Below, piece by piece: positions 9,884 to 64,000 of a stretch of 64,000 bases of DNA (position 1 is its first letter; every line of letters starts with the position of its first letter). A program made the position numbers and the translations under genes. The notes under the pieces are model-generated. The model made no database searches. It worked only from the letters and a program-made list of their open reading frames with translations, and had not been told where the DNA came from. The DNA is from a virus (taxonomy: Duplodnaviria; Caudoviricetes): the IMG/VR virus record IMGVR_UViG_3300028197_000002. One strand, given 5' to 3'.

Positions 9884-10105
9884 ATGAAATGTTTACTTGT
9901 AAAAACAAAAGATAAAAAGTTTTTAACTTACCAAAAAAATTATAAACATCTTTTGGAATATGCTAAAAATTTTAAAGCTAAAATGTATGTGGCGAAAACA
10001 AAGTCTAAAGATCAGATATTAGAATTAAATAGTTTGGTAGTTGCTTTGTGTGATAAAAATTATAAAAGTGAAGATCTAGAATATGAAATAATTGAAGAAA
10101 AATGA
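9884..10105 (+). CDS. Hypothetical protein
   Basis: 73-aa ORF with SD GGAG, coupled to next gene. Confidence 0.6.
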   Translation: MKCLLVKTKDKKFLTYQKNYKHLLEYAKNFKAKMYVAKTKSKDQILELNSLVVALCDKNYKSEDLEYEIIEEK

Positions 10106-10710
10106 TAAATGTAAGTCATAAATTTATTTACGTTGGAGTTCCTAAGACTGGAACAACGTCAATAGAAACTTTCATTAAAAAAAAATATAAAATTCTTCCA
10201 AGCTGCCAAAGCAAACATTGGCCAATTTCTCTACACGACGCAGAATATTTAGATTATTTCAAATTTGCTTTTGTTAGAAATCCTTGGGATTGGGTAGTGT
10301 CTTGGTTTTCTTATAGGAAAGAGCCTAGCTCTACTTTTACAACACCAAGTTCAGCAATAAAATCTGAATTTAAAAGATGGATTTTTAAAACCTTCGAAGA
10401 AAATGAAAAGCTTAAAAAAGAAAATTATTCTTTAAATAAAAGTCTCTGCTACAGGCCTCTGTATTTGTCTCAAAGTGAATACATCTCCATTGACGGCGAA
10501 TTGAAAATGGATTTTATAGGTAGGTTTGAAAATTTACAAAAAGATTTTGATTCAATTTGCAAAAAAATAAAAATTCCAAAGCACATCTTAGACGCCCGAA
10601 ACAAAAGTTGGCACGACCATTACTCATTATATTATGATGTTGAATCTTTTTCTTTTGTAAAAGAAAAATATAAAGATGATATAATAAATTTTAATTATAA
10701 ATTTAAATGA
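10102..10710 (+). CDS. Sulfotransferase family 2 protein
   Basis: YVGVPKTGTTSI (5'-PSB loop), FAFVRNPWDWVVSWF, DFIGRFENL. Confidence 0.85.
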   Translation: MINVSHKFIYVGVPKTGTTSIETFIKKKYKILPSCQSKHWPISLHDAEYLDYFKFAFVRNPWDWVVSWFSYRKEPSSTFTTPSSAIKSEFKRWIFKTFEENEKLKKENYSLNKSLCYRPLYLSQSEYISIDGELKMDFIGRFENLQKDFDSICKKIKIPKHILDARNKSWHDHYSLYYDVESFSFVKEKYKDDIINFNYKFK

Positions 10711-10737
10711 AAGATATAATGAAAAAGATTTTTTAAA

Positions 10738-11601
10738 ATGAGAAAATTTGGAATAGAAATTGAGTTAAACTCTTTTGATAATAGAAATTTTTCAAAAAAT
10801 CCTTTAAATATAGGCGAATACCCAAAAGGATTTTTTGAGGTCGTTGATTCGATCTCTTCTCTGGGATTTAAAGTAGAGCCTAAGTCTTGGCACCACACTC
10901 ATAATAATCGCAATTGGATTGTTAAAACAGATTCTTCGTGTGGGATAGAGATATGCTCCCCAGTTTTGGAAGAGACTGATTCTGTGATTGTTCTTCTTGA
11001 TCATTTGAAAGAGAAAAAGTTTCAAGCAGATCATTCTTGTTCTTTTCATATTCACTTTGATTTTTTTGATAGTTTAAATGATCAAATTGCTTCGGTTTTA
11101 TCTTGGTGGATTAAAGTAGAGCATTTGGTTTTTGATTGCTTGAGTGACAATAGGAAGTTGAACTCTTATTGCAAGTCTATAGGTCTTTGTAATATTTTTG
11201 AGCATGATCAAATTCCTTCTGAGGAAGTGATATTTTCTTTAGGCAAAAGTAAACACTACAGCGTCAATACTTTTCATTTGGTTAGAAATAACAGAAGAAC
11301 TTTAGAGTTTAGATTATTTAATTCAAAAGAATTTATTGATAATTCTTTTGAATTAAATAATTGGATGTTTTTTTTAAATGAATTTATCAACGCTTCTTCT
11401 TCGAAGGGTACGCCGTCAGATTTTTGTTGGGTTGACCTTGAAGAATTACTAGCGTTAATAAATTTAAAAAATGAAAAATTATTTTGGCTTTTGTCTAAAA
11501 TAAATAATAAAATAGATAAAAAATCTTTATTTAGATCTAAATCTTTTGATGATTTAAAAAAAATATTTGTTGAAAAATCAAATCTTATGAAGGATAAATA
11601 A
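10738..11601 (+). CDS. Putative amidoligase (COOH-NH2 ligase type 2)
   Basis: FGIEIE, WIVKTDSSC, EICSPVL, SCSFHIH, YSVN, RTLEFR. Confidence 0.8.
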   Translation: MRKFGIEIELNSFDNRNFSKNPLNIGEYPKGFFEVVDSISSLGFKVEPKSWHHTHNNRNWIVKTDSSCGIEICSPVLEETDSVIVLLDHLKEKKFQADHSCSFHIHFDFFDSLNDQIASVLSWWIKVEHLVFDCLSDNRKLNSYCKSIGLCNIFEHDQIPSEEVIFSLGKSKHYSVNTFHLVRNNRRTLEFRLFNSKEFIDNSFELNNWMFFLNEFINASSSKGTPSDFCWVDLEELLALINLKNEKLFWLLSKINNKIDKKSLFRSKSFDDLKKIFVEKSNLMKDK

Positions 11602-11631
11602 TTTCAAAGAACGCGTAGAGGAAGGTGATCT

Positions 11632-12081
11632 ATGAGTTTTAATGAAAAATTTGAAATATTAAGAAATCTAGGAAATAAACTTGTAGATTACAACTATCCG
11701 TTGTCCCCTATCTATTTTGAAAACGACATTAGTTGTTTGAAAACTATGGAAATAGAAATAGATGGATACGATACAGTCGTTTACTTTAACAAGTCTCTAT
11801 ATGATGACGGCTGTCACTTGGAAACTTTCCAAATTTATAATAAAAATGCACCCTTTTTGCCTTTTCATCTAATTGCAAAATTAGCTCAAAAAGCATTAGG
11901 CAGTCATTTTCTATTTTTAATAGAGTTTTATCAAGATGATCACAAAGTGTATTGTTGGACAGTATCTGTCGATGATAGAGGACGTCCTATGCCTTCTCCA
12001 TTACAAACCAAAACAAAAACCAAAGTTTTTGAAGGTTTTCAATACGGCTATCTCCAGCCAGAACAAGTAAAATTATATTAA
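11632..12081 (+). CDS. Hypothetical protein
   Basis: 149-aa ORF with strong SD GGAAGGTGA. Confidence 0.7.
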   Translation: MSFNEKFEILRNLGNKLVDYNYPLSPIYFENDISCLKTMEIEIDGYDTVVYFNKSLYDDGCHLETFQIYNKNAPFLPFHLIAKLAQKALGSHFLFLIEFYQDDHKVYCWTVSVDDRGRPMPSPLQTKTKTKVFEGFQYGYLQPEQVKLY

Positions 12082-17397: not shown

Positions 17398-18059
17398 TCT
17401 ATTATTTGTCTTTGAACAGTTTTGCCTAATTGTTCAATTCTTTTTTCTGTATAGACCTCAAATTTCCATCCTCTAACTTTGCAGGCTTCTTTTGCTGCTT
17501 CCCATTTATTTTTGTTTACTTCTAGCGTGGTTTGAGATGAAGGTTTGACTTCCCATAATTCTTTGTGTCCATCCATAAATGTTATAAATAAATCAGGGAT
17601 GTAATCATGTGCATGTCCTTGGTGTAAGTAAGGAACCTTGAATGGTTCGGCATAAAAAGATAAAACATTGTCGTGTTGATCAAGTATCTTATATACTTTT
17701 TCTTCCAGTCCAGACCTGTATTTTATGGCTTTTCCAGTTTTTGTGGATGTATAGGTTCCTTGTTTGAATTTGGGCTTTCTTGTTTTTTTCTTTTTCCCTT
17801 TAAAGTCATGCCATATAATTGCTCTGTTTTGTCCTTTGTATTTTTTAAAATCAAAACTGGGATGTTTTGCTTTAAAGTGCATCTTCATGTCTCGAACAGG
17901 AGCTTGACAATGCTCTAGTGGACAAACAATGTATTCTCTTCCCTCTTCATGTTCTTCGAGAAGGTGTTCTTTGAACTCATAATATTCTTCAAACTCCATT
18001 CCACAGCAAAAACACTGGTATTTTCTAGAATTGTTATTGTTATTAAATGGTAATGTCAT
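17394..18059 (-). CDS. TnsA-like/T4 gp4-like head completion nuclease with N-terminal C2H2 zinc fingers
   Basis: Reads on the minus strand (track label wrong); YRSGLE, YIPDL, EVKP, KWEAAK; CxxC-12-HxxxxH fingers. Confidence 0.8.
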   Translation of the reverse strand: MTLPFNNNNNSRKYQCFCCGMEFEEYYEFKEHLLEEHEEGREYIVCPLEHCQAPVRDMKMHFKAKHPSFDFKKYKGQNRAIIWHDFKGKKKKTRKPKFKQGTYTSTKTGKAIKYRSGLEEKVYKILDQHDNVLSFYAEPFKVPYLHQGHAHDYIPDLFITFMDGHKELWEVKPSSQTTLEVNKNKWEAAKEACKVRGWKFEVYTEKRIEQLGKTVQRQIID

Positions 18060-18376
18060 TTTTGTTTAATTTCTGATTTGTCTATTACTTCAATTTCATC
18101 TAAATCTTTAATCGTAAATATCAACTCTTTTCTTTCATCTTTTGAATCCAAATCAAAAGCTTTAAATGTCGCATCTTTGCAAAATTCTTTTTCATCTTCA
18201 TTTGGGTTTTTCATTTTTGCGAAAGTTAATCTGCTTTGCTCAGGTGCTCCATATAGTTTTCCTTCTTTTTTAAAGAAAAACACTAATCCATTATCTTCAA
18301 TAGCACAATTTTTATCAAAATTTTCTTTGATATTGTCCCAATTATTTAATAATGTTCTAAAACTAGAAAAATGCAT
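18056..18376 (-). CDS. Hypothetical protein
   Basis: MHFSSFRTLL start with SD GGAGG. Confidence 0.65.
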   Translation of the reverse strand: MHFSSFRTLLNNWDNIKENFDKNCAIEDNGLVFFFKKEGKLYGAPEQSRLTFAKMKNPNEDEKEFCKDATFKAFDLDSKDERKELIFTIKDLDEIEVIDKSEIKQK

Positions 18377-22177: not shown

Positions 22178-22392
22178 TGTCATATACGCTTTATAATAAA
22201 TCCAATAACAATAAGTTAACTCATCCTAAAGTGGGTCTTTGGTTCACTAATAGTTTGGAAGAGGCACAAGGAATGCTTGAATCTTTTTATGAGTATTTAG
22301 ATTCTTCTAATATGTCTTCTTTGAAAGATGACATTGTAATATTTAATATTGATGAAAATAAAATAATTGAAGAATTAAATGAAGCATCATGA
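22177..22392 (+). CDS. Hypothetical protein
   Basis: 71-aa coupled ORF. Confidence 0.65.
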   Translation: MSYTLYNKSNNNKLTHPKVGLWFTNSLEEAQGMLESFYEYLDSSNMSSLKDDIVIFNIDENKIIEELNEAS

Positions 22393-23326
22393 ACACATGG
22401 TGCTATCTGTTAAAGATAGCATTGATCTTTCTGAGAAAAAAGAACAAAACACGGTAGTGATTTGCACAAGCCAGTGTGATATTAAAGTCATGATGTGGAG
22501 TGTCTTTTCTTTATTGCTAAATGCCAATAATTCTTTTGATAGTCTTGAGGCTTGTATAAATGGATCTTCTTTGAAAGAACAAAGATTATTGCAAGATGCC
22601 AAGCAGAATTTTTTTGAAGATCTTTTGTATGAATATAAAATTGATTTAAATATTCATAGGGTGCTGGGCAGGCAGGGACACTCTCATGCCATAGATAGTT
22701 GCATTCCTTGGATAGATACTGAATACTATACTCTCATGCATGATGATGTCATATTGAAAAATGATTGGTCTGATGAGTTAAAGGATTCTGGTTTTTTAGA
22801 AGATCCTAAAAGATCTTTGATTAATGTTAAGCCTTTTTTTATGATGAAGCCTTTGGCTTTTTGTAATTCTCTTTATCTGGACAAGCCAAAGCTGGGAATG
22901 CCTCATATAAATTCTTCTTTTGTTATTGTTAAAAAATCGGTCGTAGAAGAATTAGGAGTTAATTGGCAAGGATATCATAATAAAATTGATTTCAAGTTAG
23001 AGGGAGAGTGGGCTAGAAAACTTGTTGATTTTTATGAGCCAATAGCCTCTGGAAATATAAGAGAAGGAAATGAATACAATTACCACAACACAGATATAGG
23101 ATCTTGGGTTTGTTATAAATTGTTGATTTCTGATTATAATTTAAAATCAATGAAAGGCGATTTTTGCTTGCACATAACGGAAGGAAGTTGGTCAAGTGAT
23201 ATTGGGCTTGCAATTAGAATAAATAAAAATTATCAAGAAATAGAGAAAGTAGAAAATAAAATACTAAGTTCAAAGTTCGCAGACCTTTATGTTAAATATT
23301 GCGAACATTCAAATATAGTTATTTAA
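22379..23326 (+). CDS. Glycosyltransferase family 2-like
   Basis: VVICT, HSHAID, YTLMHDDVIL, HINSSF. Confidence 0.65.
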   Translation: MKHHEHMVLSVKDSIDLSEKKEQNTVVICTSQCDIKVMMWSVFSLLLNANNSFDSLEACINGSSLKEQRLLQDAKQNFFEDLLYEYKIDLNIHRVLGRQGHSHAIDSCIPWIDTEYYTLMHDDVILKNDWSDELKDSGFLEDPKRSLINVKPFFMMKPLAFCNSLYLDKPKLGMPHINSSFVIVKKSVVEELGVNWQGYHNKIDFKLEGEWARKLVDFYEPIASGNIREGNEYNYHNTDIGSWVCYKLLISDYNLKSMKGDFCLHITEGSWSSDIGLAIRINKNYQEIEKVENKILSSKFADLYVKYCEHSNIVI

Positions 23327-24145
23327 TTTTTCGTAATTGTAATTTGTTTTGGCATCAATTAGCTCTATTTCTTCTTTATTTAATATCAACTTCCATTTTT
23401 TTATTGATTCTGCATCTATTTTCCGGTGAGGGTCAGTACCCCCAAGCATTTTTTTGTTAGGCAAACATTCTTCATGTTCAATCTTATGATGATTCAAAAC
23501 TTTTTTTGACCAATTTAATCCTAAGAATTCAAATATTTTTTTAAGTTCAGTAGTAGGACTGCAGACTAGATCTTCATAACAAATAGGAAGAATTTTCCAT
23601 TTGTATTTTTCTATTTCAAAAAAAGACTCATTTTTGTAGTTCCAGTAACATATTCCTTTGAATATATTTTCTAATTTTTTATTTTCATATTTTTTTATTT
23701 CTTCCTCAAACCTTTCTCTGAAAGATCTGTTTTTATCTTTTAGCCATTTGTTTACTGAAGGTACTGTTTCAAAATTTAGGTAGTTTCTTTTTATTTCTTT
23801 GTCGTTTTCGTAACAATCTTTTTGATAGCACCCCAGATTTATCATTGACGCAAGAACCTCTTTTGGATCTCTGAATATAAATATTATTTTATCATTCTCT
23901 TCATGTAATTCTTTTATGCATTCGTACTCGGAAAATAGCTCTGTCCATATGGGGACTTGATATCCTATTATTCCTTCTTTTTTTTGATAGTTTTCTAATA
24001 AAGAGTATGCTTTTCTTTCTCCATAGCATTTTATTTTTGGATGAGAATTTAATATTAATCTCATCATTGTTGTTCCTGATCTTTGACATCCTAGTACAAA
24101 TATCTTGAAGTTTATTTTTCTTTTTTTAAAGATGTCAAATATCAT
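23309..24145 (-). CDS. Sulfotransferase family protein
   Basis: LGCQRSGTTMM, FIFRDPKEVLASM, YEDLV..P..EL..IFEFLGL.W. Confidence 0.88.
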   Translation of the reverse strand: MIFDIFKKRKINFKIFVLGCQRSGTTMMRLILNSHPKIKCYGERKAYSLLENYQKKEGIIGYQVPIWTELFSEYECIKELHEENDKIIFIFRDPKEVLASMINLGCYQKDCYENDKEIKRNYLNFETVPSVNKWLKDKNRSFRERFEEEIKKYENKKLENIFKGICYWNYKNESFFEIEKYKWKILPICYEDLVCSPTTELKKIFEFLGLNWSKKVLNHHKIEHEECLPNKKMLGGTDPHRKIDAESIKKWKLILNKEEIELIDAKTNYNYEKLNNYI

Positions 24146-24621: not shown

Positions 24622-24900
24622 ATGAAAAGGTTTAATTTCGAAGAAGATGAAGAAGATGACGATGAAGAATATTATGAAGATTCGGAAGAAATGAACATGG
24701 ATATGGATTTTGAAGATCATTTATTGGCGATGACTCATTTTCCTATAAGTGATGACTTGCTTCCTTCTGCAATTAAAGTTTGTGAAAAATCTTTATTTTG
24801 GAGATTTAGAAGTTTCAGTTATAAAGTTAAAAAAATTAGAATGGTTTATTTGGCTTTAAAAGATTTTATAGAAGAAGAAAAAAAAACAGGAGAGGTTTAA
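24622..24900 (+). CDS. Hypothetical protein with acidic N-terminus
   Basis: 92-aa ORF, SD GGAGG. Confidence 0.65.
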   Translation: MKRFNFEEDEEDDDEEYYEDSEEMNMDMDFEDHLLAMTHFPISDDLLPSAIKVCEKSLFWRFRSFSYKVKKIRMVYLALKDFIEEEKKTGEV

Positions 24901-25256
24901 TGCCCAGATATGAGTTTACTTGCGAGCAATGCGGAGAGGTTATAGACCTTTTTTGTAGCATGGCCGAGAAAAAAGATGCCGCTAAAAAAATAAAATGCGA
25001 AAAATGTGGTTCCACTGAAATTCAAGAAAATTTTGGATTTCTTTTTAATTTTACCAACCCAGAAGGCACAGATCGTTGGAACAGTGAGTCTACCGGTCAT
25101 GATTATAGATTTAAACATAATTATGAAAAACCCGGAGGTACGGCTGACGAGAGAAAAAATGCACAAAGACATTCTCATGTAGGTAATGATCCATACAGAA
25201 AAATTGATGACATCAATGGTCCCGGTGGAGGGAACGATTTTGGTGAAGTTAAATAA
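24900..25256 (+). CDS. FmdB-family zinc-ribbon protein
   Basis: MPRYEFTCEQCG...CEKCGS. Confidence 0.8.
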   Translation: MPRYEFTCEQCGEVIDLFCSMAEKKDAAKKIKCEKCGSTEIQENFGFLFNFTNPEGTDRWNSESTGHDYRFKHNYEKPGGTADERKNAQRHSHVGNDPYRKIDDINGPGGGNDFGEVK

Positions 25257-25259
25257 CAT

Positions 25260-25288
25260 TTGATTAAAATTTAGCATTTTGATACAAT
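25260..25288 (+). promoter_or_regulatory. Sigma70-like promoter of prkA operon
   Basis: TTGATT-N17-TACAAT with extended -10 TG. Confidence 0.5.
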
Positions 25289-25328: not shown

Positions 25329-27392
25329 ATGAGCATATTACAAAAATATTCTGACAGATTTAACAAAGATCAATTTGTAAAATTAAATGAAGAAATGTCT
25401 TTTGATGATTATTTGACAAAAGTTAAACAAAACCCTAATTTAGCAAGAACTGCCTATCAATATCTTTATGATATGATATTGTCTAAGGGCACGTCTTCTG
25501 TTCAAAGATTTAAAAAAAAATATGTTCATTATAATTTCTTTGATGATGTAGAAGGTCCTATTTTTGGTTTAGATGAAACTCTTCACCAACTAGTTCAATT
25601 TTTCAAAGGTGCTGCTGGAGGCTATGGTCCTGAAAGAAGAGTTCTTTTGCTGCATGGACCTGTAGGTTCTTCAAAATCAACTATTTTAAAATGCATTAAA
25701 AAAGGCTTGGAAAAATATTCATTGTTGGATGAAGGCGCGTGGTACACATTTAAATGGGTAAACCTTCCAACAGGTAGCGATGATGGGATTTATACATCTA
25801 GTGAAGATGAATCTCCAATGCATGAAAATCCTCTCAAGTTGTTGCCTCCTGACTTAAGAAAAGATTTTCTAGATGAGATCAATTCAGAAAACAATAGATC
25901 TGATGCTGCTTATTCTTTTTCTGTTGATGGCGAATTAGATCCTAGGTCTAAAAAGTTTATGAAAGAACTTCTAATTAGGCATAAGGGAGATTGGGGAGAG
26001 GTTGTAAAAAATCATATAGTTGTGATTAGAAAAACTCACTCAGAAACAGATCGTGTTGGAATTGCAACATTTCAACCAAAAGATGAAAAAAATCAAGATA
26101 GCACAGAGCTTACTGGTGATATTAACTGGGGTAAGCTTCCACATTTCGGAACAGACTCAGATCCAAGAGCTTTTAATTTTGATGGAGAGTTTTGTGTCGG
26201 TAACAGAGGCATTATTGAATTCATAGAAGTTTTGAAACTTGCAAAAGAATTTTTGTATGATCTTTTAGGAGCCTCTCAAGAACGTCAAATTAAACCAAAG
26301 AAGTTTCCTCAAGTTTCTGTAGATACTGTTCTTGTCGGCCACACAAATAATCCAGAGTATGAGAGATTAAAGAGTGATCAAACTATGGAAGCTTTAAGAG
26401 ATAGAACTGTTAAAATAGATGTTCCTTATCTTCTTCGTTGGAGTGATGAATTGAATATATTGGAATATTATTATGGAAAAAATAAAATTAAACAACACAT
26501 AGCTCCTCATACATTAGAGATAGCTGCTCTTTGGTCTGTTCTAACTAGACTTCAAGAAGATAAAGATGGAAAGATTAGTCTTGTTGAAAAAGCCAAACTG
26601 TATGATGGAAGAGCGCTCCCGGGTTGGACTGAAGATTCTGTAAAAGAATTAAGAGATAAGTATACTGAAGAAGGAATGTTTAAAGGAATTAGCTGTCGAT
26701 ATGTCCAAGACAAGATATCTAATTGCCTAAGTTCAGAATACAATTACATAAATTTCTTTATGGTTTTGAATGAATTAAAATCAGGTTTAGATCATCAATC
26801 TTTATTTGATAGCGAAGAGGATAAGTCAAGGTATATTAATTGCATCTCTCTTGCAAAAAATGAATTAGACCAAATTTTAAAGTCGGAAGTTCAAAAGGCT
26901 TTGGTTGGAGACGAGAATGCTATTGAGAGATTGTGTGGAAATTACATAGACAATGTAATGGCCTACATAGAAGGCACAAAGATTAAAAACCCATTTACAG
27001 AGCAAGACCAAGAGCCAGACGAAAGGCTTATGCGTTCCATAGAAGAGAAAATTGATGTTCCTGAAGTTGGAACAGATGATTTTAGAAGGTCTTTAGCAGC
27101 CTTTATTGGAAACTTGGCTCATAGTGGCAAAGAATTCAAATGGGACTCAAACCCTCAACTTAAAAAGGCTCTGGAAGCAAAGTTGTTTGAAGATACAAAA
27201 GATCACATAAAGCTTTCTGCTTTGAGTGTCAAAGGCACAACGGTTGTTGACAAAGAAGTTCAAGAAAAAATAGACGCAGTCAAAAAGAGACTGATTGACA
27301 GCTATGGGTATAACGAACAATCTGCAACAGATGTTTTAGATTATGTGGGTTCCATTTTTGCCCGTGGTGATATGGCTGATGATGAAGAATAG
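25329..27392 (+). CDS. prkA: PrkA/YeaG family AAA+ (serine kinase-annotated) protein
   Basis: LHGPVGSSKST, ESPMHENPL, KDEKNQDSTELTG, NRGIIEFIE, EALRDR, GIS.RYVQ. Confidence 0.95.
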   Translation: MSILQKYSDRFNKDQFVKLNEEMSFDDYLTKVKQNPNLARTAYQYLYDMILSKGTSSVQRFKKKYVHYNFFDDVEGPIFGLDETLHQLVQFFKGAAGGYGPERRVLLLHGPVGSSKSTILKCIKKGLEKYSLLDEGAWYTFKWVNLPTGSDDGIYTSSEDESPMHENPLKLLPPDLRKDFLDEINSENNRSDAAYSFSVDGELDPRSKKFMKELLIRHKGDWGEVVKNHIVVIRKTHSETDRVGIATFQPKDEKNQDSTELTGDINWGKLPHFGTDSDPRAFNFDGEFCVGNRGIIEFIEVLKLAKEFLYDLLGASQERQIKPKKFPQVSVDTVLVGHTNNPEYERLKSDQTMEALRDRTVKIDVPYLLRWSDELNILEYYYGKNKIKQHIAPHTLEIAALWSVLTRLQEDKDGKISLVEKAKLYDGRALPGWTEDSVKELRDKYTEEGMFKGISCRYVQDKISNCLSSEYNYINFFMVLNELKSGLDHQSLFDSEEDKSRYINCISLAKNELDQILKSEVQKALVGDENAIERLCGNYIDNVMAYIEGTKIKNPFTEQDQEPDERLMRSIEEKIDVPEVGTDDFRRSLAAFIGNLAHSGKEFKWDSNPQLKKALEAKLFEDTKDHIKLSALSVKGTTVVDKEVQEKIDAVKKRLIDSYGYNEQSATDVLDYVGSIFARGDMADDEE

Positions 27393-27395
27393 TAG

Positions 27396-27403
27396 TATAA
27401 ATA
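27396..27403 (+). promoter_or_regulatory. T4-type late promoter motif
   Basis: TATAAATA immediately before yeaH. Confidence 0.4.
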
Positions 27404-27415
27404 GAGAGAATTTAA

Positions 27416-28594
27416 ATGCCACGTCGAATCGAAGAAGATCACAAAGACTTCCATGATGTATATGCTGGTCGAAAGAGAAAAGAATTAAAAAAATTCATAA
27501 AAAATGGAAGCATATTTAAAAATCGAGGTAAAAATGGAAAGATTGTATTAACAATCCCAAAAATTGACATTCCCCATATTGTTTATGGAAGCGACGGTTC
27601 AGGAGGAATTGGTCGAGGGGAAGGCGAAGAAGGAAAGGTTATTGGAAAAGAGAAGGAAGAAGGAGATGGCAAAGGAAAGGCTGGAAATGAGTCTGGAGAG
27701 GGAATAGACATTGCCGTTGATCTTGAAGAGATTCTTAAGTTTCTTCAAGATGAATTAGATCTTCCTGATATGAAGCCAAAGCCGAGTGATACATATGAAG
27801 ATGTGATAAAAAGATACAATAACATATCTTTAACAGGACCAGAGTCTTTAAGGCATAACGCAAGGACTTTGAGACAAGCTCTCAAAAGACAATGCGCGGA
27901 TGGTTCCATACACAAATTGCATGACATTCCCGGATTCGCCCAGCCTATAAAGTTGATAACGCCTATAAATAGCGACAAAAGATATAGGCAATTCAATGAA
28001 ATAAAAATACCTTCTAGCAATGCTGTTATATTTTTTGCTAGGGATGGGTCTGCTTCTATGGATCAATCCAAGTGTGACATAGTTAGTGATATGTGCTGGT
28101 GGATTGATGTTTGGATAAGAAAGTTCTATGAAAAAGTAGAAAGAGTTTATGTATGGCACGACACAGTGGCAAAAGAGGTTGATGAGAAAAAGTTTTATAA
28201 ATACAGATATGGAGGAGGAACTGTTTGTTCTGAAGCTTTAAAGCTTGTGTCTTCTATGTTTGAAAATAGATTCAATCCTTCAAAGTGGAATATCTATTTA
28301 TTTTATTTTACGGATGGAGATAATTGGTCTGGCGATAATGAAAAATTCATTAAAATGTTGAAAGAAGATTTTAACGTTAATGTCGTCAATATGGTTGGGA
28401 TAACTCAAGTTTTATCTTATAACTATGACAGAAGTCTGAAGCAGGCTGTAGATAAAAATGATTTTAAAAATGTTAAAACAACACAAGTTTCGTATGAACA
28501 AGATCAATACATGAACATATCAGAAGAAGATAGAGATAGGCAAATTAAAGAAGCTGTTGTTGATCTCTTGGGAAAGGAGAAAGTAAATGAGTAA
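27416..28594 (+). CDS. yeaH: YeaH/YhbH (DUF444) vWA-like protein
   Basis: Gly-rich GRGEGEEG segment, LDLPDMKPK, RDGSASM, YGGGT..S.AL, YFTDGDNW. Confidence 0.92.
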   Translation: MPRRIEEDHKDFHDVYAGRKRKELKKFIKNGSIFKNRGKNGKIVLTIPKIDIPHIVYGSDGSGGIGRGEGEEGKVIGKEKEEGDGKGKAGNESGEGIDIAVDLEEILKFLQDELDLPDMKPKPSDTYEDVIKRYNNISLTGPESLRHNARTLRQALKRQCADGSIHKLHDIPGFAQPIKLITPINSDKRYRQFNEIKIPSSNAVIFFARDGSASMDQSKCDIVSDMCWWIDVWIRKFYEKVERVYVWHDTVAKEVDEKKFYKYRYGGGTVCSEALKLVSSMFENRFNPSKWNIYLFYFTDGDNWSGDNEKFIKMLKEDFNVNVVNMVGITQVLSYNYDRSLKQAVDKNDFKNVKTTQVSYEQDQYMNISEEDRDRQIKEAVVDLLGKEKVNE

Positions 28595-30191
28595 GAAATT
28601 CATGGAAGGTTCTCCTATCTTGATGGGAAATAATACCATACCGGGAGTAGCTATTCCAGATGATCTTCAAAAATTGCTTCCGACGATATATAAAAAAGTA
28701 AGTGAATTTGGTTGCGACTATTATCCAACTGTGGTTGAGATGCTGACCTATGACGAGATAAGTGAAATTGCAGCCTATGGAGGGTTTCCTGTTCGATATC
28801 CACATTGGAAGTGGGGAATGGAGTATGAAGAGCTTCAAAGAGGATATATGTATGGGATGCATAAAATATATGAGTTGGTGATTAACACCAATCCAGTATA
28901 TATTTATTGTTTGGATTCTAATACGTTGGTTGATAATGTCACTGTTGTTGCTCATGCTCTAGGACATGCGGACTTTTTCAAAAATAATATTTATTTTTCT
29001 CAAACTAGTCAGAACATGATGAACCAGTTGGCTAATCACGGAGCTAGGATTAGAAAATATATGAGTCGTTGGGGGAGAGAGAGAGTTACTGAATTTATTG
29101 ATCATGTATTGAGAATAGAAACTTTAATTGATCATTCTAAAGCTTGGCAAAGAAAACAAGTCAAGAATCCAATTATCAAAGATCATAGAGCATATCGTCA
29201 TCCTAAAAGATTGAAATCAAGAGATGATCGTGATTACATGGATGATTATTTGAACCCAAAAGATTGGATTCAAAATCAAAAAGAAAGAATCGAATTTTTA
29301 GACACAGCGGACTATTTAGATATATTTTCAGATCCCACTAAAGATATTATGAGGTTCATAAGAGATTATGCTCCTCTAAAGCCTTGGGAAGCTGATATAG
29401 TTGCAATGCTTTATGACGAAAGCATGTACTTCGCTCCACAGAGACTCACCAAAACTATAAATGAAGGTTGGGCTTCTTACGTTGATTATAACATAATGGC
29501 AAGGCAAGGATTTACTGCTTTAGGCCAAGATCATGATAGTTCTGGAATAATAGAATATTCTCATCACAAAATGGGAGTGTTAGGTGGCAAGTATTCTATG
29601 AATCCTTATAAGCTTGGCTTTTGTTTGTTTTTGGATATTGAAGAAAGATGGAATAAAGGGCAGTTTGGAACGGAATGGGAAAATTGTGAAGATCTTGCTC
29701 AAAAAGAAAATTGGGATAAAAATCTAAATTTAGGTCATGAAAAAGTATTTGAAGTGAGAACATTTCAAAATGATTTGACTTTAATCATGGAATATTTTAC
29801 CCCAGAGTTCTGTGAGAAATATGAATTCTTCGAATGGAAGAAATATCCAAATGGAGAATATAAAATAGAAAATAGAGATTTTAATAAAATTAAAAATAAA
29901 TTAATAAAAAAATACACTAATGGAGGGTTGCCTGATATTTCTCTTGTAGACCACAATCACAAAGGCAAAAAAGTGCTATTTCTAGAGCATCAAGGTGACG
30001 GAAGGCCTTTATATGATCCTTATATACGCCCTGTGATGCAGTCTCTGAGGTATTTGTGGAAGAATGACGTATGTTTGTCTACAAAGGCTTTAGACGACAC
30101 AGAGCTTATTTATAAGTGTATGGGAGATGATTTGGCAATAGATATTGTAGACGGAAGGCAGTATTTCAGTCATTCTGACGTTTTTGAGTAA
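28587..30191 (+). CDS. spoVR: SpoVR/YcgB family protein
   Basis: GGFPVRYPHWKWG, IYELVINTNP, VVAHALGHADFFKNN, YFAPQ..TK.INEGWASY, NPYKLG. Confidence 0.95.
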   Translation: MSKKFMEGSPILMGNNTIPGVAIPDDLQKLLPTIYKKVSEFGCDYYPTVVEMLTYDEISEIAAYGGFPVRYPHWKWGMEYEELQRGYMYGMHKIYELVINTNPVYIYCLDSNTLVDNVTVVAHALGHADFFKNNIYFSQTSQNMMNQLANHGARIRKYMSRWGRERVTEFIDHVLRIETLIDHSKAWQRKQVKNPIIKDHRAYRHPKRLKSRDDRDYMDDYLNPKDWIQNQKERIEFLDTADYLDIFSDPTKDIMRFIRDYAPLKPWEADIVAMLYDESMYFAPQRLTKTINEGWASYVDYNIMARQGFTALGQDHDSSGIIEYSHHKMGVLGGKYSMNPYKLGFCLFLDIEERWNKGQFGTEWENCEDLAQKENWDKNLNLGHEKVFEVRTFQNDLTLIMEYFTPEFCEKYEFFEWKKYPNGEYKIENRDFNKIKNKLIKKYTNGGLPDISLVDHNHKGKKVLFLEHQGDGRPLYDPYIRPVMQSLRYLWKNDVCLSTKALDDTELIYKCMGDDLAIDIVDGRQYFSHSDVFE

Positions 30192-30258
30192 AATTGGTTT
30201 ATTTTAGGCTTTTCAAGGGGTAAATACATTGTATTTCCTCTTAAATTCAGGAGCCTAA

Positions 30259-30957
30259 ATGAGCAAGAGTGCAACTCCTAGAAAAGCTGCTGTAGAACAA
30301 CTTATTGGTGATGTTCATGGTTACAATGTAAACCATAGTTCTAGAGAGATATATCTTCATGGTTATTTGTCAGATGATGAGGAGCCGGGAGTTGATTATA
30401 GGATGGCTACAAATTTTATAAAAAATTTGCATATCTTACAATCTCAAAACAATAAGAACATTCTAGTTCACATGCACACTATTGGTGGCTGTTGGAGTGA
30501 TGGAATGGCAATGTATAATTCTATTAGAATGATACAATCTCCTCTGACTATATTAGGCTATGCTCAAGCTTCTTCTATGAGTGGGATTATAATTCAAGCT
30601 GCCGACAAAAGAGTAATAATGCCTGATTGCGAATTTATGATACATCATGGTTCTTTATCTGTTTCTGACAACTCAATGGCGGTTAAATCAGCAGTTGATA
30701 GGAATGAAGTCAACTGCAAAAGAATGCTACAGGTGTTTGCTCAAAGAGCAGTTCATGGGAAATTCTTTAAAGATCGAAGCTATGGAATTAGAAAAGCAAT
30801 GAATGTAATTGATCAGAAAATAAAATCTACATCTGATTGGTACATGGATGCTGAAGAAGCTGTTTACTATGGATTTGCTGATGGCATATTAGGGGAAAAA
30901 GGATTTGAAACTATGGCTAAGATAAGAGCAGGAAGAAAAAAGAAAGATTTCAGTTAA
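30259..30957 (+). CDS. clpP: ClpP-like protease subunit 1
   Basis: TIGG, ASSMS (Ser), FMIHH (His), DWYMDAEEAVYYGFAD (Asp). Confidence 0.85.
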   Translation: MSKSATPRKAAVEQLIGDVHGYNVNHSSREIYLHGYLSDDEEPGVDYRMATNFIKNLHILQSQNNKNILVHMHTIGGCWSDGMAMYNSIRMIQSPLTILGYAQASSMSGIIIQAADKRVIMPDCEFMIHHGSLSVSDNSMAVKSAVDRNEVNCKRMLQVFAQRAVHGKFFKDRSYGIRKAMNVIDQKIKSTSDWYMDAEEAVYYGFADGILGEKGFETMAKIRAGRKKKDFS

Positions 30958-30981: not shown

Positions 30982-31155
30982 ATGTTTGTTAATTTCTTTT
31001 TGTTTTTGATAATTTTTATTTTTTTATTGGGAGTTTTTTGCATATCTATGAGTCTATTTGTTAAGGATTCAAAACAAAACTTACATTTTAAGATTAAAAA
31101 AAAATCAGAAGTAGACTTGTCACCAATTATTGAAGAGATCGAAGATGATTTCTAG
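30982..31155 (+). CDS. 57-aa single-pass membrane protein (not in track)
   Basis: MFVNFFLFLIIFIFLLGVFCISMSLFVKDSKQ...; SD GAGGAGG. Confidence 0.6.
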   Translation: MFVNFFLFLIIFIFLLGVFCISMSLFVKDSKQNLHFKIKKKSEVDLSPIIEEIEDDF

Positions 31156-31188
31156 CAACAATTATTTTTTGTTTTTTAATTTTCATCA

Positions 31189-31261: not shown

Positions 31262-32659
31262 ATGAAAATTGTTGGATTTGAACATTTACATTTACACACT
31301 GATTTTTCTGTTTTGGATGGCTATGGAACTGTGCATGAGTATGCAAAAAGAGCAAGAGAGATAAATCAACAGTTCCTTTGCGTGAGTGATCATGGATCTT
31401 TAGGTGCTGTTCCCAGACAAGTGCAGGCTTGCGAAAAGTATGGAGTCAATCCTATATTTGCTTGTGAACTTTATGTAAACCCTCTTCAGCCTGCATCGAA
31501 GTCTCATAAGTCTTCTAAAATTACAGAAGACATGTCTCCAGAAGAAAGAAAGGCATTTAAGAAATCTTATCATTTGCTTGCAATCGCTTATAGTCAGCAA
31601 GGATATGTTAATTTAGTTAATTTATCATCTGCTGCTTGGACTAAGGGTTTTTATTACAAACCTAGAGTTAATCATGAGCTTTTAACTAAGCACAAAGAAG
31701 GTTTGATTTTTACTTCTTGTTGTTACAACTCCGAAATAGGTCAAGCTTTTGATAGGGGTGGTGAAGAAGCAGGTTTCGATGCTGTTGAGAAATACATAGA
31801 TCTTTTCGGTAAAGAAAATTTCTATTTAGAAATGATGCTTTTAGATTTCAACAAGCAAAAGCCATATAATAAATTCATTATAAAGGCTCATGAAAGATAT
31901 GGTTTGAAATTAACATTAGCAAATGACTGTCATTATTGCATGGAAGAAGATAGTAAAATGCAAAGACTTATGCTTATGGTTCAAACTAAAAATACTGTGA
32001 AAGACATAGAAGCGAAATTAGCTGCTGATGATACTGCTGATTTGTTTGAACTTCAAGATACTAATTTGTGGATGAAGTCAGAAGAAGAATTAAATTTCAA
32101 GTGGAAAAAAGATTATGCCGAAGATATTCCTTATGAGTTGTTTGAACAAGCTAAAATTAATACGACAAAAATAGCAGAAAAATCAAAAGGCGTTGAATTA
32201 GATAGGTCTATTAAGCTTCCTTATATGGAAGATGCTGATTTAAAATTATTAGAGGCTATTGAAGAAGGATTTTTAAAAAGACATCTTCCTAAAAATAAAA
32301 CTTACTTGGGAAGAGTAAAAGAAGAGTATTCTCTTATTTGCAATAAAGGGTTTGCTTCTTATTTTCTTATTCAAAAAATAATGACAGACGAAGCCAGAAG
32401 GATTTGTCCCACTTTACTGGGGTACGGAGATGGCTCAGAGGCAGTTGGTCCCGGAAGAGGAAGTGCTGTCGGCGCTTTGACTTGTTATTGCTTAGGCATT
32501 ACGGATGTAGACCCAATTAAGCATGATTTGCTTTTTTCAAGGTTTTTAAGTCCTTCTCGTGGTGGAAAGCAAATGAAATTGAGATTTTCGATAGATCCGA
32601 TAGAGGTCACAGAAGAATTTGCGAATGATTGTCCTTTTGATGTTCCTTTTAATTATTGA
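31262..32659 (+). CDS. dnaE: DNA polymerase III alpha (DnaE), N-terminal fragment (PHP + first palm segment)
   Basis: HLHLHTDFSVLDG, SDHG, ACE, HLL, CC, NDCHY; GPGRGSAVG; ends after FSRFLSPSR. Confidence 0.93.
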   Translation: MKIVGFEHLHLHTDFSVLDGYGTVHEYAKRAREINQQFLCVSDHGSLGAVPRQVQACEKYGVNPIFACELYVNPLQPASKSHKSSKITEDMSPEERKAFKKSYHLLAIAYSQQGYVNLVNLSSAAWTKGFYYKPRVNHELLTKHKEGLIFTSCCYNSEIGQAFDRGGEEAGFDAVEKYIDLFGKENFYLEMMLLDFNKQKPYNKFIIKAHERYGLKLTLANDCHYCMEEDSKMQRLMLMVQTKNTVKDIEAKLAADDTADLFELQDTNLWMKSEEELNFKWKKDYAEDIPYELFEQAKINTTKIAEKSKGVELDRSIKLPYMEDADLKLLEAIEEGFLKRHLPKNKTYLGRVKEEYSLICNKGFASYFLIQKIMTDEARRICPTLLGYGDGSEAVGPGRGSAVGALTCYCLGITDVDPIKHDLLFSRFLSPSRGGKQMKLRFSIDPIEVTEEFANDCPFDVPFNY

Positions 32660-61056: not shown

Positions 61057-61550
61057 AAAAATCAAAAATAAAAACAAATATAAAAGGTGTTGTTTTTTTT
61101 GAACTAGAGAGTTTTGATGATGGTAGAGGATCTCTTACGGAACTTTTTAGGCATGATTGTTTAGATAATCACAACTTCCCAGTTATGGCTTATTTAAGTG
61201 AAACAAAGCCAAATGTTTCCAGAGGTCCTCATGAGCATGAAGACCAATCAGATTTATTTTTTTTCGCAGGACCAGCAGATTTCAAATTGGTTCTTTGGGA
61301 AAAAAGTCAACAGTTTGTTGATTTGGGATGTGAAACGCAAGGATTGTACAGGGAAGAGCATATTGTGGGTGTGAGTAACCCTACAGGAGTTATCGTTCCT
61401 CCCGGAGTTATACATGGATATAAAAACATATCAGATGTTTCCGGCTTAGTTATAAATGCTCCAAATAAACTATACGCAGGTCCCGGAAAATTATACGAGG
61501 TGGACGAAATAAGGCATGAAGATGAAAAAAACACAGATCTTATTATTTAA
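61053..61550 (+). CDS. rmlC: dTDP-4-dehydrorhamnose 3,5-epimerase (RmlC-like cupin)
   Basis: DGRGSLTELFR, SRGPHEHEDQ, VPPGVIHGY. Confidence 0.85.
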   Translation: MKKSKIKTNIKGVVFFELESFDDGRGSLTELFRHDCLDNHNFPVMAYLSETKPNVSRGPHEHEDQSDLFFFAGPADFKLVLWEKSQQFVDLGCETQGLYREEHIVGVSNPTGVIVPPGVIHGYKNISDVSGLVINAPNKLYAGPGKLYEVDEIRHEDEKNTDLII

Positions 61551-62499
61551 TATTTTTATTTATTTGGTTTTGACAAATCTTGTTTTGTCTCAAGAAAAAA
61601 CAGGATTTGCCATAGATCCAAGTGCAAATAACATTGCGGTTCTTTTCACTATGACGGACGAAAGTGGAAGAACGCGTAATTTAGATTTGATAGAATCAGT
61701 TTTTAAAGATGGAGCTTTAGGTTTTAAGGCTCAAAGATATCATAACGTTTCTTCTCCTTTTATTTATAATAAGCTAACAGAGATTTCTGAAAAATTAGAC
61801 GACAATGCTACCTTGCTCTGTTATTTTAACAGTCATGGAGGAGGAAGCGGTAATAGATTTATAATGAGTGCTAAAGGTGGAAATTTTAAATTTAGCAAAG
61901 CTTTGGATGCTATTAAGAAAGGCAAGAAAGTTAAGAGATTAGTTTTTCTAGTAGACACTTGTCATGCCGAAGGCAGCATTCAAGATTCTACTGGTCAAGA
62001 TGGTGAATTATTAAAAAATTTAAGAGATGCAACCCCTACTGAGTTTCTTCCAGAGTTGCCTGACACTTATGACTCAAAGGACTTGCCTTTCACTGCAAGT
62101 TTTATTGAAAGCCGACTTGAAAAAAGAGGTTATAAAACTTATAGAGTTACAAATAGAGTTATTGACTACGGTCAGGAAAGTGGGGCTTATGATGAAATAT
62201 TAATTATTAGTTCTTCGAGTGTTGAGAAGGTTTCGTACAGAGGAGTTTTTGCTTCTCGTTTAAATTCTACTTTCCAGAAAGTAAAAGAAGATAATGAAGT
62301 GACAGTAAATCAATTTTTAAAGAAGTTCGCGGATAGCCATTCTAAGAGTGGACAACAACCGCACTACAAACTTCTTCCTGACAAGACGATGCTTGAAGAA
62401 CCTTTATTTGGTCCTTGGCTCGCGCAGGTTTTGCCAATCATGGAAAATGGCAAAAGAAAAGAATTAGGGTATAATTTCATACCAATGCCAAGTAAATAA
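61516..62499 (+). CDS. Caspase-like (clan CD) cysteine peptidase with N-terminal signal peptide
   Basis: YFNSHGGG (His) and LVDTCHAEG (Cys); IISSS..SY..G.F; hydrophobic N-terminus. Confidence 0.75.
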   Translation: MKMKKTQILLFNIFIYLVLTNLVLSQEKTGFAIDPSANNIAVLFTMTDESGRTRNLDLIESVFKDGALGFKAQRYHNVSSPFIYNKLTEISEKLDDNATLLCYFNSHGGGSGNRFIMSAKGGNFKFSKALDAIKKGKKVKRLVFLVDTCHAEGSIQDSTGQDGELLKNLRDATPTEFLPELPDTYDSKDLPFTASFIESRLEKRGYKTYRVTNRVIDYGQESGAYDEILIISSSSVEKVSYRGVFASRLNSTFQKVKEDNEVTVNQFLKKFADSHSKSGQQPHYKLLPDKTMLEEPLFGPWLAQVLPIMENGKRKELGYNFIPMPSK

Positions 62500-62509
62500 A
62501 AGGCGATTA

Positions 62510-63127
62510 ATGTTCAATAATTTTGATATAGATTCTAGGCTTAGAATAAGCCCTAAATCTTTTCCTGATTTTTTTGCGGCTCCTGTAACTCTTTATGTGA
62601 ATGATTTTGATGAAGAATCAGTGGTTAAATTTAAAAAAGAAATGGAGTTGGCTCAGAACACAAATCAGGACATAATTCCTATAGTAATAGACTCTTATGG
62701 GGGGCATGTTTATAGTCTGCTTGCTATGATAGACATAATAGAACAATGTCCAGTTACAGTGGCAACTATAGGTCTAGGAAAAATGATGAGTTGTGGAAGT
62801 GTTTTATTGACTTGTGGTGATGAAGGATATCGCTTTGCAAGTCCAAACTCCACAGTCATGGTTCATGATGTTTCTTCTTGGACTTCAGGGAAAAATGAAG
62901 AAATTCAGTCTAGTGCTGCTCAAACAAACAAGTTGAATAAAAAGATTTTTGAAATCATGTCTGTTAATTGTGGTCATCATAAATCTTATTTTTTAGATAA
63001 GCTTTTTGAAAAGCATCATGCTGAGTGGTATCTTTCTTCAAAAGAAGCCAAGAGAGAAAATATTATACAATATATAAAAACTCCTTCATTTAACATAAGC
63101 ATTAATGTGAACGTGGATTTTAGTTAA
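62510..63127 (+). CDS. clpP: ClpP-like protease subunit 2
   Basis: IDSYGG, GKMMSCG (Ser), MVHD (His), EWYLSSKEA. Confidence 0.85.
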   Translation: MFNNFDIDSRLRISPKSFPDFFAAPVTLYVNDFDEESVVKFKKEMELAQNTNQDIIPIVIDSYGGHVYSLLAMIDIIEQCPVTVATIGLGKMMSCGSVLLTCGDEGYRFASPNSTVMVHDVSSWTSGKNEEIQSSAAQTNKLNKKIFEIMSVNCGHHKSYFLDKLFEKHHAEWYLSSKEAKRENIIQYIKTPSFNISINVNVDFS

Positions 63128-63555: not shown

Positions 63556-63642
63556 AAAATTAACTCTTGATTATTTATTTTATTTATGTTCTTAGAAACA
63601 ATAAATAAAATAAAACCTTTTTCAAGTTTAATTGGGAGATTA

Positions 63643-64000
63643 ATGACTAGAACTAGAAAAAAAAGACAAGCTTCGTCAAAAGCGTCTGAAACAAAAACCA
63701 CAAAAACTACTTCTATTAAAAGAAGAAGAAATTTACTTAAGCCTAAGACCAAAAATCAAGAAGATGTGATTTATGCTTTAGCAGAAAATACTGTAACTCT
63801 TGCGATGGGTCCTGCTGGAACTGGCAAGACAAAAATAGCAGTAGCATATGGTGTTGAAAAATTATTGGATGGAGACTTTAAAAGGCTGGTCATAACCAGA
63901 CCTGTAGTAGAAGCAGGAGAGAATTTAGGTTTCCTTCCGGGTTCGTTTGAAGAAAAGATAGATCCTTATTTGCAGCCTATATATTACGAGCTTTCCCATT
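63643..64000 (+). CDS. phoH: PhoH family ATPase (partial, runs off window; not in track)
   Basis: PKTKNQ, AMGPAGTGKT, ITRPVVEAGENLGFLPGSFEEKIDPYLQP. Confidence 0.93.
   Translation, partial: MTRTRKKRQASSKASETKTTKTTSIKRRRNLLKPKTKNQEDVIYALAENTVTLAMGPAGTGKTKIAVAYGVEKLLDGDFKRLVITRPVVEAGENLGFLPGSFEEKIDPYLQPIYYELSH

Follow-up and report, generated by a model that had tools for sequence, protein, structure and literature searches.

A 64,000-nucleotide stretch of DNA from a virus of the Caudoviricetes (Duplodnaviria; IMG/VR record IMGVR_UViG_3300028197_000002), referred to here in its full length as the window, carries on one strand and in canonical order the adjacent genes prkA, yeaH and spoVR, followed by a gene for a ClpP-like peptidase that we call ClpP-A. 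We consider it likely that the trio is a vertically inherited module of a clade of huge T4-like phages, accompanied by an accessory, separately controlled peptidase of ClpP fold. The trio is a trait of this clade, being neither a one-off nor a recent capture, and ClpP is an inherited, dispensable neighbour and not an obligatory fourth subunit. An earlier note on this DNA had described the phage-borne trio as complete, intact and canonically ordered, and this is borne out by plus-strand open reading frames, Pfam domains and motifs. The prkA-yeaH gap measures 23 nt, and the start of spoVR overlaps the end of yeaH (-8 nt). Likewise, the ClpP that the note had placed 67 nt behind spoVR, with an intact Ser-His-Asp triad, is found at this distance (spoVR stop at 30191, clpP ATG at 30259). 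Its triad residues Ser106, His129 and Asp193 align with Ser97, His122 and Asp171 of Escherichia coli ClpP.

At least 139 contigs in IMG/VR encode a relative of the window's PrkA, of which the best 80 were kept as loci. PrkA is 61-84% identical to these 80 viral-contig homologues. The closest DNA belongs to uncultured huge phages (LR756511 and IMG/VR contigs); the 595-kb LR756511 is the closest phage in GenBank, with a PrkA 66% identical to that of the window. As revealed by tblastn with the window's proteins, the block order Zn-ribbon protein, PrkA, YeaH, SpoVR, optionally ClpP, and the N-terminal half of a split DnaE (DnaE-N) is kept in the 80 loci. DnaE-N serves as the downstream anchor and lies 3' of SpoVR or ClpP in most relatives, while a homologue of the Zn-ribbon protein stands directly 5' of prkA in nearly all of the 80 loci. 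No such homologue was found at 80 bacterial prkA loci, and the Zn-ribbon protein may be a phage-specific fourth member or a regulator of the block.

In a tree of 64 distinct PrkA sequences of phages (taken from the window and the 80 retained loci) and the 80 nearest bacterial ones, all phage sequences fell on one side of a single branch (Shimodaira-Hasegawa-like approximate likelihood-ratio support 100), and the nearest bacterial PrkA proteins were 53-56% identical to that of the window. This history fits a single ancient acquisition from bacteria with the 'long' type of PrkA. The earlier note had named a one-off recent capture from a host, or a chimeric contig, as what would overturn its proposal. 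A bacterial origin speaks for such an event only at the level of the gene families. Against it stand the recurrence of the block with phage flanks across at least 139 viral contigs, the monophyly of phage PrkA with respect to its nearest bacterial relatives, the low identity to these relatives, and a G+C content that is even throughout the region, junctions included. We therefore regard capture or chimerism as practically negligible. In the window, the flanks hold genes for a DnaB-like helicase, a RecA-like protein, the split DnaE and PhoH, i.e. a phage replication context.

Compared with the bacterial prkA-yeaH-spoVR operon (yeaG-yeaH-ycgB) of the 'long PrkA' type, which occurs in Myxococcota, Bdellovibrionota, Planctomycetota, Chloroflexota, Calditrichota and other metagenome-assembled genomes, the phage trio retains the three families, their order, similar protein lengths, and the AAA+, MIDAS (metal ion-dependent adhesion site) and SpoVR motifs. 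Beyond the value given for PrkA, identities amount to 32-41% for YeaH (at all loci except one) and 36-43% for SpoVR, and 53 of the 80 nearest bacterial loci have all three genes in canonical order. The phage version differs in being phage-borne and forming a separate clade, in the Zn-ribbon gene on its 5' side and the frequent ClpP on its 3' side (neither of them found at the 80 bacterial loci), and in the inteins that interrupt genes of the window's relatives. Phage-borne trios as such are already on record, in the Thermus phages phiYS40 and TMA (annotated as SpoVR and 'serine kinase') and in the Ralstonia jumbo phage RsoM2USA (PMC8504454), and the three families have their own PHROG entries (22605, 19072 and 35217). 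These trios likewise unite the same three families in genomes of lytic type, but their PrkA proteins are only 23-32% identical to that of the window, ClpP is absent within 10 kb, and phiYS40 has the permuted order yeaH-spoVR-x-prkA. The clade-specific detail documented here is the ClpP, which is ancestral and optional and shows signs of being controlled separately.

The region 3' of spoVR was covered in 67 loci, which could thus be scored for ClpP. The gene followed spoVR in 33 of these and was absent from the other 34, with at least nine state changes on the combined PrkA and YeaH tree. Wherever present, it occupied the same location. The clades of PrkA reappear in the ClpP tree, and the two proteins are correlated in their pairwise identities (Mantel r = 0.88, a value reached by none of 2000 permutations), with ClpP diverging faster than PrkA (pairwise identity 34-86% versus 57-92%). 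From the constant position and the tree matching that of PrkA we conclude that ClpP is ancestral to the clade and was inherited vertically, and we read the state changes as repeated loss. The co-divergence is no evidence of interaction, because any two vertically inherited genes show it.

The absences extend further. A complete 572-kb relative with terminal repeats and the trio has no PF00574 match anywhere in its genome. In LR756511, the Pfam model detects only another Clp protease at a great distance from the trio, and a search of this genome with the ClpP-A protein gave no match. In phiYS40, RsoM2USA and three phages of approximately 640 kb (LR756504, LR745206 and LR756502), no ClpP was found within 10 kb of the trio genes, nor was one found at the 80 bacterial loci searched with E. 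coli ClpP. In turn, a ClpP-A homologue of 49% identity on L004 overlaps the 5' end of a T4-type terminase gene and has no trio within 10 kb. Finally, no alignment column and no length of PrkA, YeaH or SpoVR separates ClpP-positive from ClpP-negative phages; the contrast by ClpP state returned two weak columns, one of which is the +1 residue of a SpoVR intein. The clpP linkage on which the earlier note had built its proposal thus recurs and is inherited vertically, while half of the scorable phages and all 80 bacterial loci do without it.

The spoVR-clpP spacer of the window is structured (-19.7 kcal/mol, z = -3.64; none of 200 shuffled sequences was as stable): GGGGTAAATAC forms part of an inner hairpin at 30215-30242, and the clpP Shine-Dalgarno sequence CAGGAG (30248-30253) is paired by an outer stem. 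The paired ribosome-binding site is a possible element of translational control. In L008, L009, L010 and L012, the same spacer holds other, terminator-like hairpins, each with a U run behind it. A (G/T)CTAAATA box, GGTAAATA in the window, is located 33-44 nt before the clpP start, at about 41 nt in the closest relatives, and the TAAATA box precedes clpP in the window, L003, L008, L009, L010, L012, L015 and L023. Overall, 11 of 23 distinct relatives have TAAATA 5' of clpP, compared with 0-15% for the other five genes. The box resembles the T4 late -10 element. Because neither CTAAATA nor GGTAAATA is enriched in the window, it is no general promoter consensus of the phage, and we treat it as a putative gene-specific control element. 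The earlier note had taken the trio and clpP to be transcribed as one unit; the structured spacer of the window, together with the hairpins of its close relatives and the conserved TAAATA box, suggests instead that clpP may be a separate unit. One marine metatranscriptome run contained 14% of the sampled sequence words, from which we draw no conclusion on habitat.

Within 90 nt upstream of prkA, 32 of 62 distinct relatives have the sigma-70-type pattern TTGnnn-N16-18-TAnnnT; before the other five genes its share is 4-31%. These motif matches suggest an early unit starting at prkA. A late promoter had furthermore been proposed before yeaH. The motif in question, TATAAATA, is indeed present in the prkA-yeaH gap, but it ends only 12 nt from the ATG and is absent from this place in all of 61 distinct relatives, and is probably a chance or strain-specific match. 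The window as a whole contains 16 copies of TATAAATA against 7.4 expected, and one of 100 shuffled sequences reached 16; as several copies are intragenic (27964 and 28196 within yeaH), the count alone does not mark late promoters.

With PF00574, ClpP-A scores 75 bits, well above the cut-off of 20.2, which places it in the ClpP family. Across 51 homologues the triad Ser and His are invariant and the Asp is at least 90% conserved. An AlphaFold2 model of high confidence (predicted local distance difference test score 90) was compared with the Protein Data Bank (PDB) by Foldseek. The top 50 matches listed were all ClpP, with template-modelling scores by target of 0.78-0.84, the best being Pseudomonas aeruginosa ClpP2. 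Of its 463 homologues, many lie on contigs 100-630 kb long. The fold is shared by many ClpP-like proteins of phages, and stand-alone ClpP genes are common in phages.

ClpP-A resembles the ClpP peptidases of MEROPS family S14 (E. coli ClpP, P. aeruginosa ClpP2; PDB 9ndj and 7m1l) in fold, triad and the long handle helix. It departs from cellular ClpP in sequence, with approximately 21-24% identity and scores below the cut-offs of all NCBIfam ClpP models, and in an insert of approximately 16 residues after the handle helix. In contrast to ClpP proteins that bind ClpX, the model starts only about seven residues before helix A, and the axial hairpin therefore seems to be missing. In an alignment of approximately 22% identity, which is indicative only, E. 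coli Tyr60 corresponds to Leu69 and Tyr62 to His71, the latter invariant. In E. coli ClpP, Tyr60 and Tyr62 are among the residues that we take to form the hydrophobic docking pocket for the loops of ClpX and ClpA. The short N-terminus and the altered pocket suggest a peptidase that either has an open gate or works with a Clp ATPase of the host.

The earlier note had envisaged the four proteins as a single remodelling machine. In its most explicit form, ClpP-A would be the peptidase chamber for PrkA, a protease-less AAA+ protein, with YeaH as a von Willebrand factor A (vWA) adaptor and SpoVR as a regulator or substrate gate. The conserved, vertically inherited position directly after spoVR in half of the clade agrees with this arrangement, as does the pocket, which is unlike that of ClpX-binding ClpPs. 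Five ClpP-positive relatives with a completeness of 25-63% yielded no AAA_2 gene of the ClpX/ClpA type, so that a non-canonical ATPase partner is conceivable, and purified PrkA of Bacillus anthracis combines an AAA+ fold and a pore loop with a lack of protease activity (PMC13001217). These points are outweighed by the distribution: the trio persists without an adjacent ClpP in 34 relatives and without any Clp protease in the complete 572-kb genome, and the linkage is missing from five further trio-bearing phage genomes and 80 bacterial operons. Moreover, the trio proteins do not differ with ClpP state, clpP seems to have regulatory signals of its own, and a close ClpP-A homologue sits beside a terminase gene with no trio within 10 kb. 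We therefore consider a four-part machine very unlikely. If it existed, the trio would carry out targeted unfolding and degradation, and phages and bacteria lacking the gene would borrow a cellular peptidase. ClpP should not serve as a clue to the mechanism of the trio without direct evidence, and in this respect the added value of the present finding is mostly negative.

The terminase neighbour of the L004 homologue recalls another role, in which ClpP-A would belong to the ClpP-related head-maturation proteases and serve virion assembly (prohead or scaffold), being no more than a neighbour of the trio. The best PHROG match of ClpP-A is indeed phrog_94, 'head maturation protease' (E = 1.7e-24), and the NCBIfam model Clp_rel_HeadMat (NF045542) gives 58 bits, similar to the models for ClpP subfamilies. 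All NCBIfam scores are under their cut-offs, however, that of NF045542 being 120. The gene is located among replication genes, between spoVR and dnaE, and not among structural genes, it is missing from half of the clade, and in the model the ClpP fold is complete, down to the long handle helix. A prohead protease of the T4 gp21 type (PF03420) is encoded in the ClpP-positive genomes G006 and G007 as well as in the ClpP-negative G002. Because ClpP-positive relatives possess this enzyme, ClpP-A is not needed for head maturation. Since the clade has a gp21-type enzyme, we rejected the prohead protease as the principal interpretation and judge it very improbable.

The role that we adopt for ClpP-A, at about even confidence, is that of a peptidase which, with host ClpX or ClpA or without a gate, speeds the turnover of host proteins to amino acids independently of the trio. 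It agrees with the full ClpP fold and triad, with the few residues before helix A and the apparent lack of an axial gating hairpin, with the frequency of stand-alone ClpP genes in phages, and with the failure to find a phage AAA_2 unfoldase in the relatives searched. These relatives are incomplete genomes, however, and the replacement of the docking-pocket tyrosines may weaken binding of ClpX.

The proteins of the trio are, as is ClpP-A, diverged members of their families, scoring above the Pfam cut-offs while the NCBIfam equivalog models remain below theirs. For PrkA, the two domains PF08298 and PF06798 reach 267 and 256 bits (cut-off 25 each), while the equivalog model NF011999 gives 203 bits against a cut-off of 576, i.e. 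the protein is no E. coli-type equivalog. Its Walker A motif GPVGSSKS spans G110 to S117. G110, P111, V112, G113, K116 and S117 are invariant across the phage and bacterial rows of the alignment, and so are R293-G294-x2-E297-x2-E300, H338/N340 and D358/R359. YeaH scores 217 bits with PF04285 (cut-off 27) and 316 bits with NF003711, under the cut-off of the latter. Its MIDAS residues D210-x-S212-x-S214, T269 and D300 do not vary among 65 distinct sequences. SpoVR exceeds the cut-offs of PF04293 (353 bits) and PF24755 (34 bits) and is full length and uninterrupted in the window.

SpoVR genes of the relatives, on the other hand, often hold in-frame, stop-free inteins of 1.0-1.3 kb (Intein_splicing and LAGLIDADG_3 domains). 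Two sites recur, after residues corresponding to approximately 100 (...VIN|T) and 296 (...NEGWA|S) of the window's SpoVR, and some genes have both. Such genes are found at L010 (13298-16108) and L017 (3055-5937), at L012, L016, L025, L036, L037, L039, L044 and L052, and further at L055, L061, L064, L065, L074 and L085. Because inteins favour essential conserved motifs, the two sites flag candidate functional residues. Inserts of intein type also occur in one PrkA (L003, 3846-7088) and in three DnaE-N genes (L055, L060 and L076). In L078, the frames of PrkA (10001-12079) and ClpP (17411-18094) each contain one in-frame stop, which could reflect decay, a sequencing error or recoding.

Among bacterial modules of debated biochemistry, the PrkA/YeaH/SpoVR group is one of the most widespread. 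The literature on PrkA activity is split: one study (10.1101/072470) treats it as a kinase, citing earlier work, and weak protease activity has also been proposed, while purified B. anthracis PrkA was an AAA+ ATPase in which protease activity was undetectable (PMC13001217). In six bacteria the genes yeaG, yeaH and ycgB show cofitness, and their phenotypes concern the use of amino acids as nitrogen source (10.1101/072470), and according to the literature they recur as targets in evolution experiments.

Large phage clades keep the trio under strong constraint, and in relatives of the window inteins have even settled in it. This retention implies that, apart from sporulation, the trio fulfils some need of the virus during a single infection. 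Since Walker A, MIDAS and the SpoVR core are all kept, the three proteins most likely act together as in bacteria, presumably as an ATP-driven AAA+/vWA/SpoVR unit of remodelling or signalling. Pairs of MoxR-type AAA+ ATPases and vWA proteins that act in remodelling include RavA-ViaA and CbbQ-CbbO. The phage genes would be comparable to these in that a gene for an AAA+ ATPase is followed by one for a MIDAS-bearing vWA-like protein, but PrkA is outside the MoxR family and has a C-terminal domain of its own, so that the analogy concerns the working mode and not membership. As the motifs indicate, transcription of the trio probably begins early, at a sigma-70-type promoter 5' of prkA, and the trio would reset the starvation state and amino-acid metabolism of the host and thereby keep a nutrient-poor cell productive. 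ClpP-A would have held its present position since the ancestor of the clade, often lost and faster evolving, with its own upstream box and structured spacer, and would most likely add general turnover of peptides and proteins, either without a gate or with a host ATPase. The phage trios offer compact and diverse sequences for biochemistry.

Several points weigh against this picture of an inherited trio with a separately controlled peptidase. With a gap of 67 nt, in which a consensus scan found no canonical terminator, read-through from spoVR into clpP is possible in the window. The promoter calls are consensus matches, and neither sigma-70-like sites in the region overall nor CTAAATA in the window are enriched. 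The distance of ClpP to spoVR remains short (typically 50-450 nt) while that to dnaE-N varies widely, and its retention at the exact spot across deep branches would also result from a loose functional tie. The role proposed for the trio in the phage is, moreover, one that we infer.

The coordinates of the block and of its immediate surroundings are given in Table 1.

Table 1. Features of the prkA-yeaH-spoVR-clpP block and adjoining sequence; positions are those of the window.
Feature	Position	Strand	Evidence
Zn-ribbon protein, 118 aa, Zn_ribbon_8	24900-25256	+	PF09723, E = 2.5e-9
Candidate sigma-70-like promoter, TTGATT-17-TACAAT with upstream TG	25260-25288	+	Consensus scan; within the 72-nt spacer before prkA
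PrkA/YeaG-type AAA+ ATPase with PrkA C-terminal domain, 687 aa	25329-27392	+	PF08298, E = 4e-79; PF06798, E = 5e-76; phrog_22605
TATAAATA motif in the prkA-yeaH gap	27396-27403	+	Motif match
YeaH/YhbH (DUF444) with vWA-type MIDAS motif, 392 aa	27416-28594	+	PF04285, E = 5e-64
SpoVR/YcgB family protein, 534 aa	28587-30191	+	PF04293, E = 3e-105; SpoVR_C, PF24755
Structured spoVR-clpP spacer	30203-30259	+	RNA fold
ClpP-A, serine peptidase of ClpP fold, 232 aa	30259-30957	+	PF00574, 75 bits
Small open reading frame, 57 aa, hydrophobic N-terminus and acidic tail	30983-31156	+	Read from the sequence between clpP and dnaE-N
Split DnaE, N-terminal half (PHP and Pol III alpha)	31262-32659	+	PF02811 and PF07733

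Just 5' of the block lie a sulfotransferase gene (23309-24145, minus strand) and a gene for a 315-aa protein without known family (22379-23326, plus strand), a pair shared with only a few close relatives (L008 and L009). Near the far end of the window, a second gene of the ClpP family (62510-63127, plus strand; 205 aa; PF00574, 92 bits) encodes a protein with 24% identity to ClpP-A, in which the position of the triad Asp is occupied by Glu in the alignment. A pattern scan of viral contigs revealed no relatives of this paralogue, nor was it found in two close relatives with more than 30 kb of downstream sequence; it is probably strain-specific. Directly 5' of it stands a gene for a caspase-like protein (Peptidase_C14, 61516-62499), and the PhoH gene (63586-64000) follows on its 3' side.

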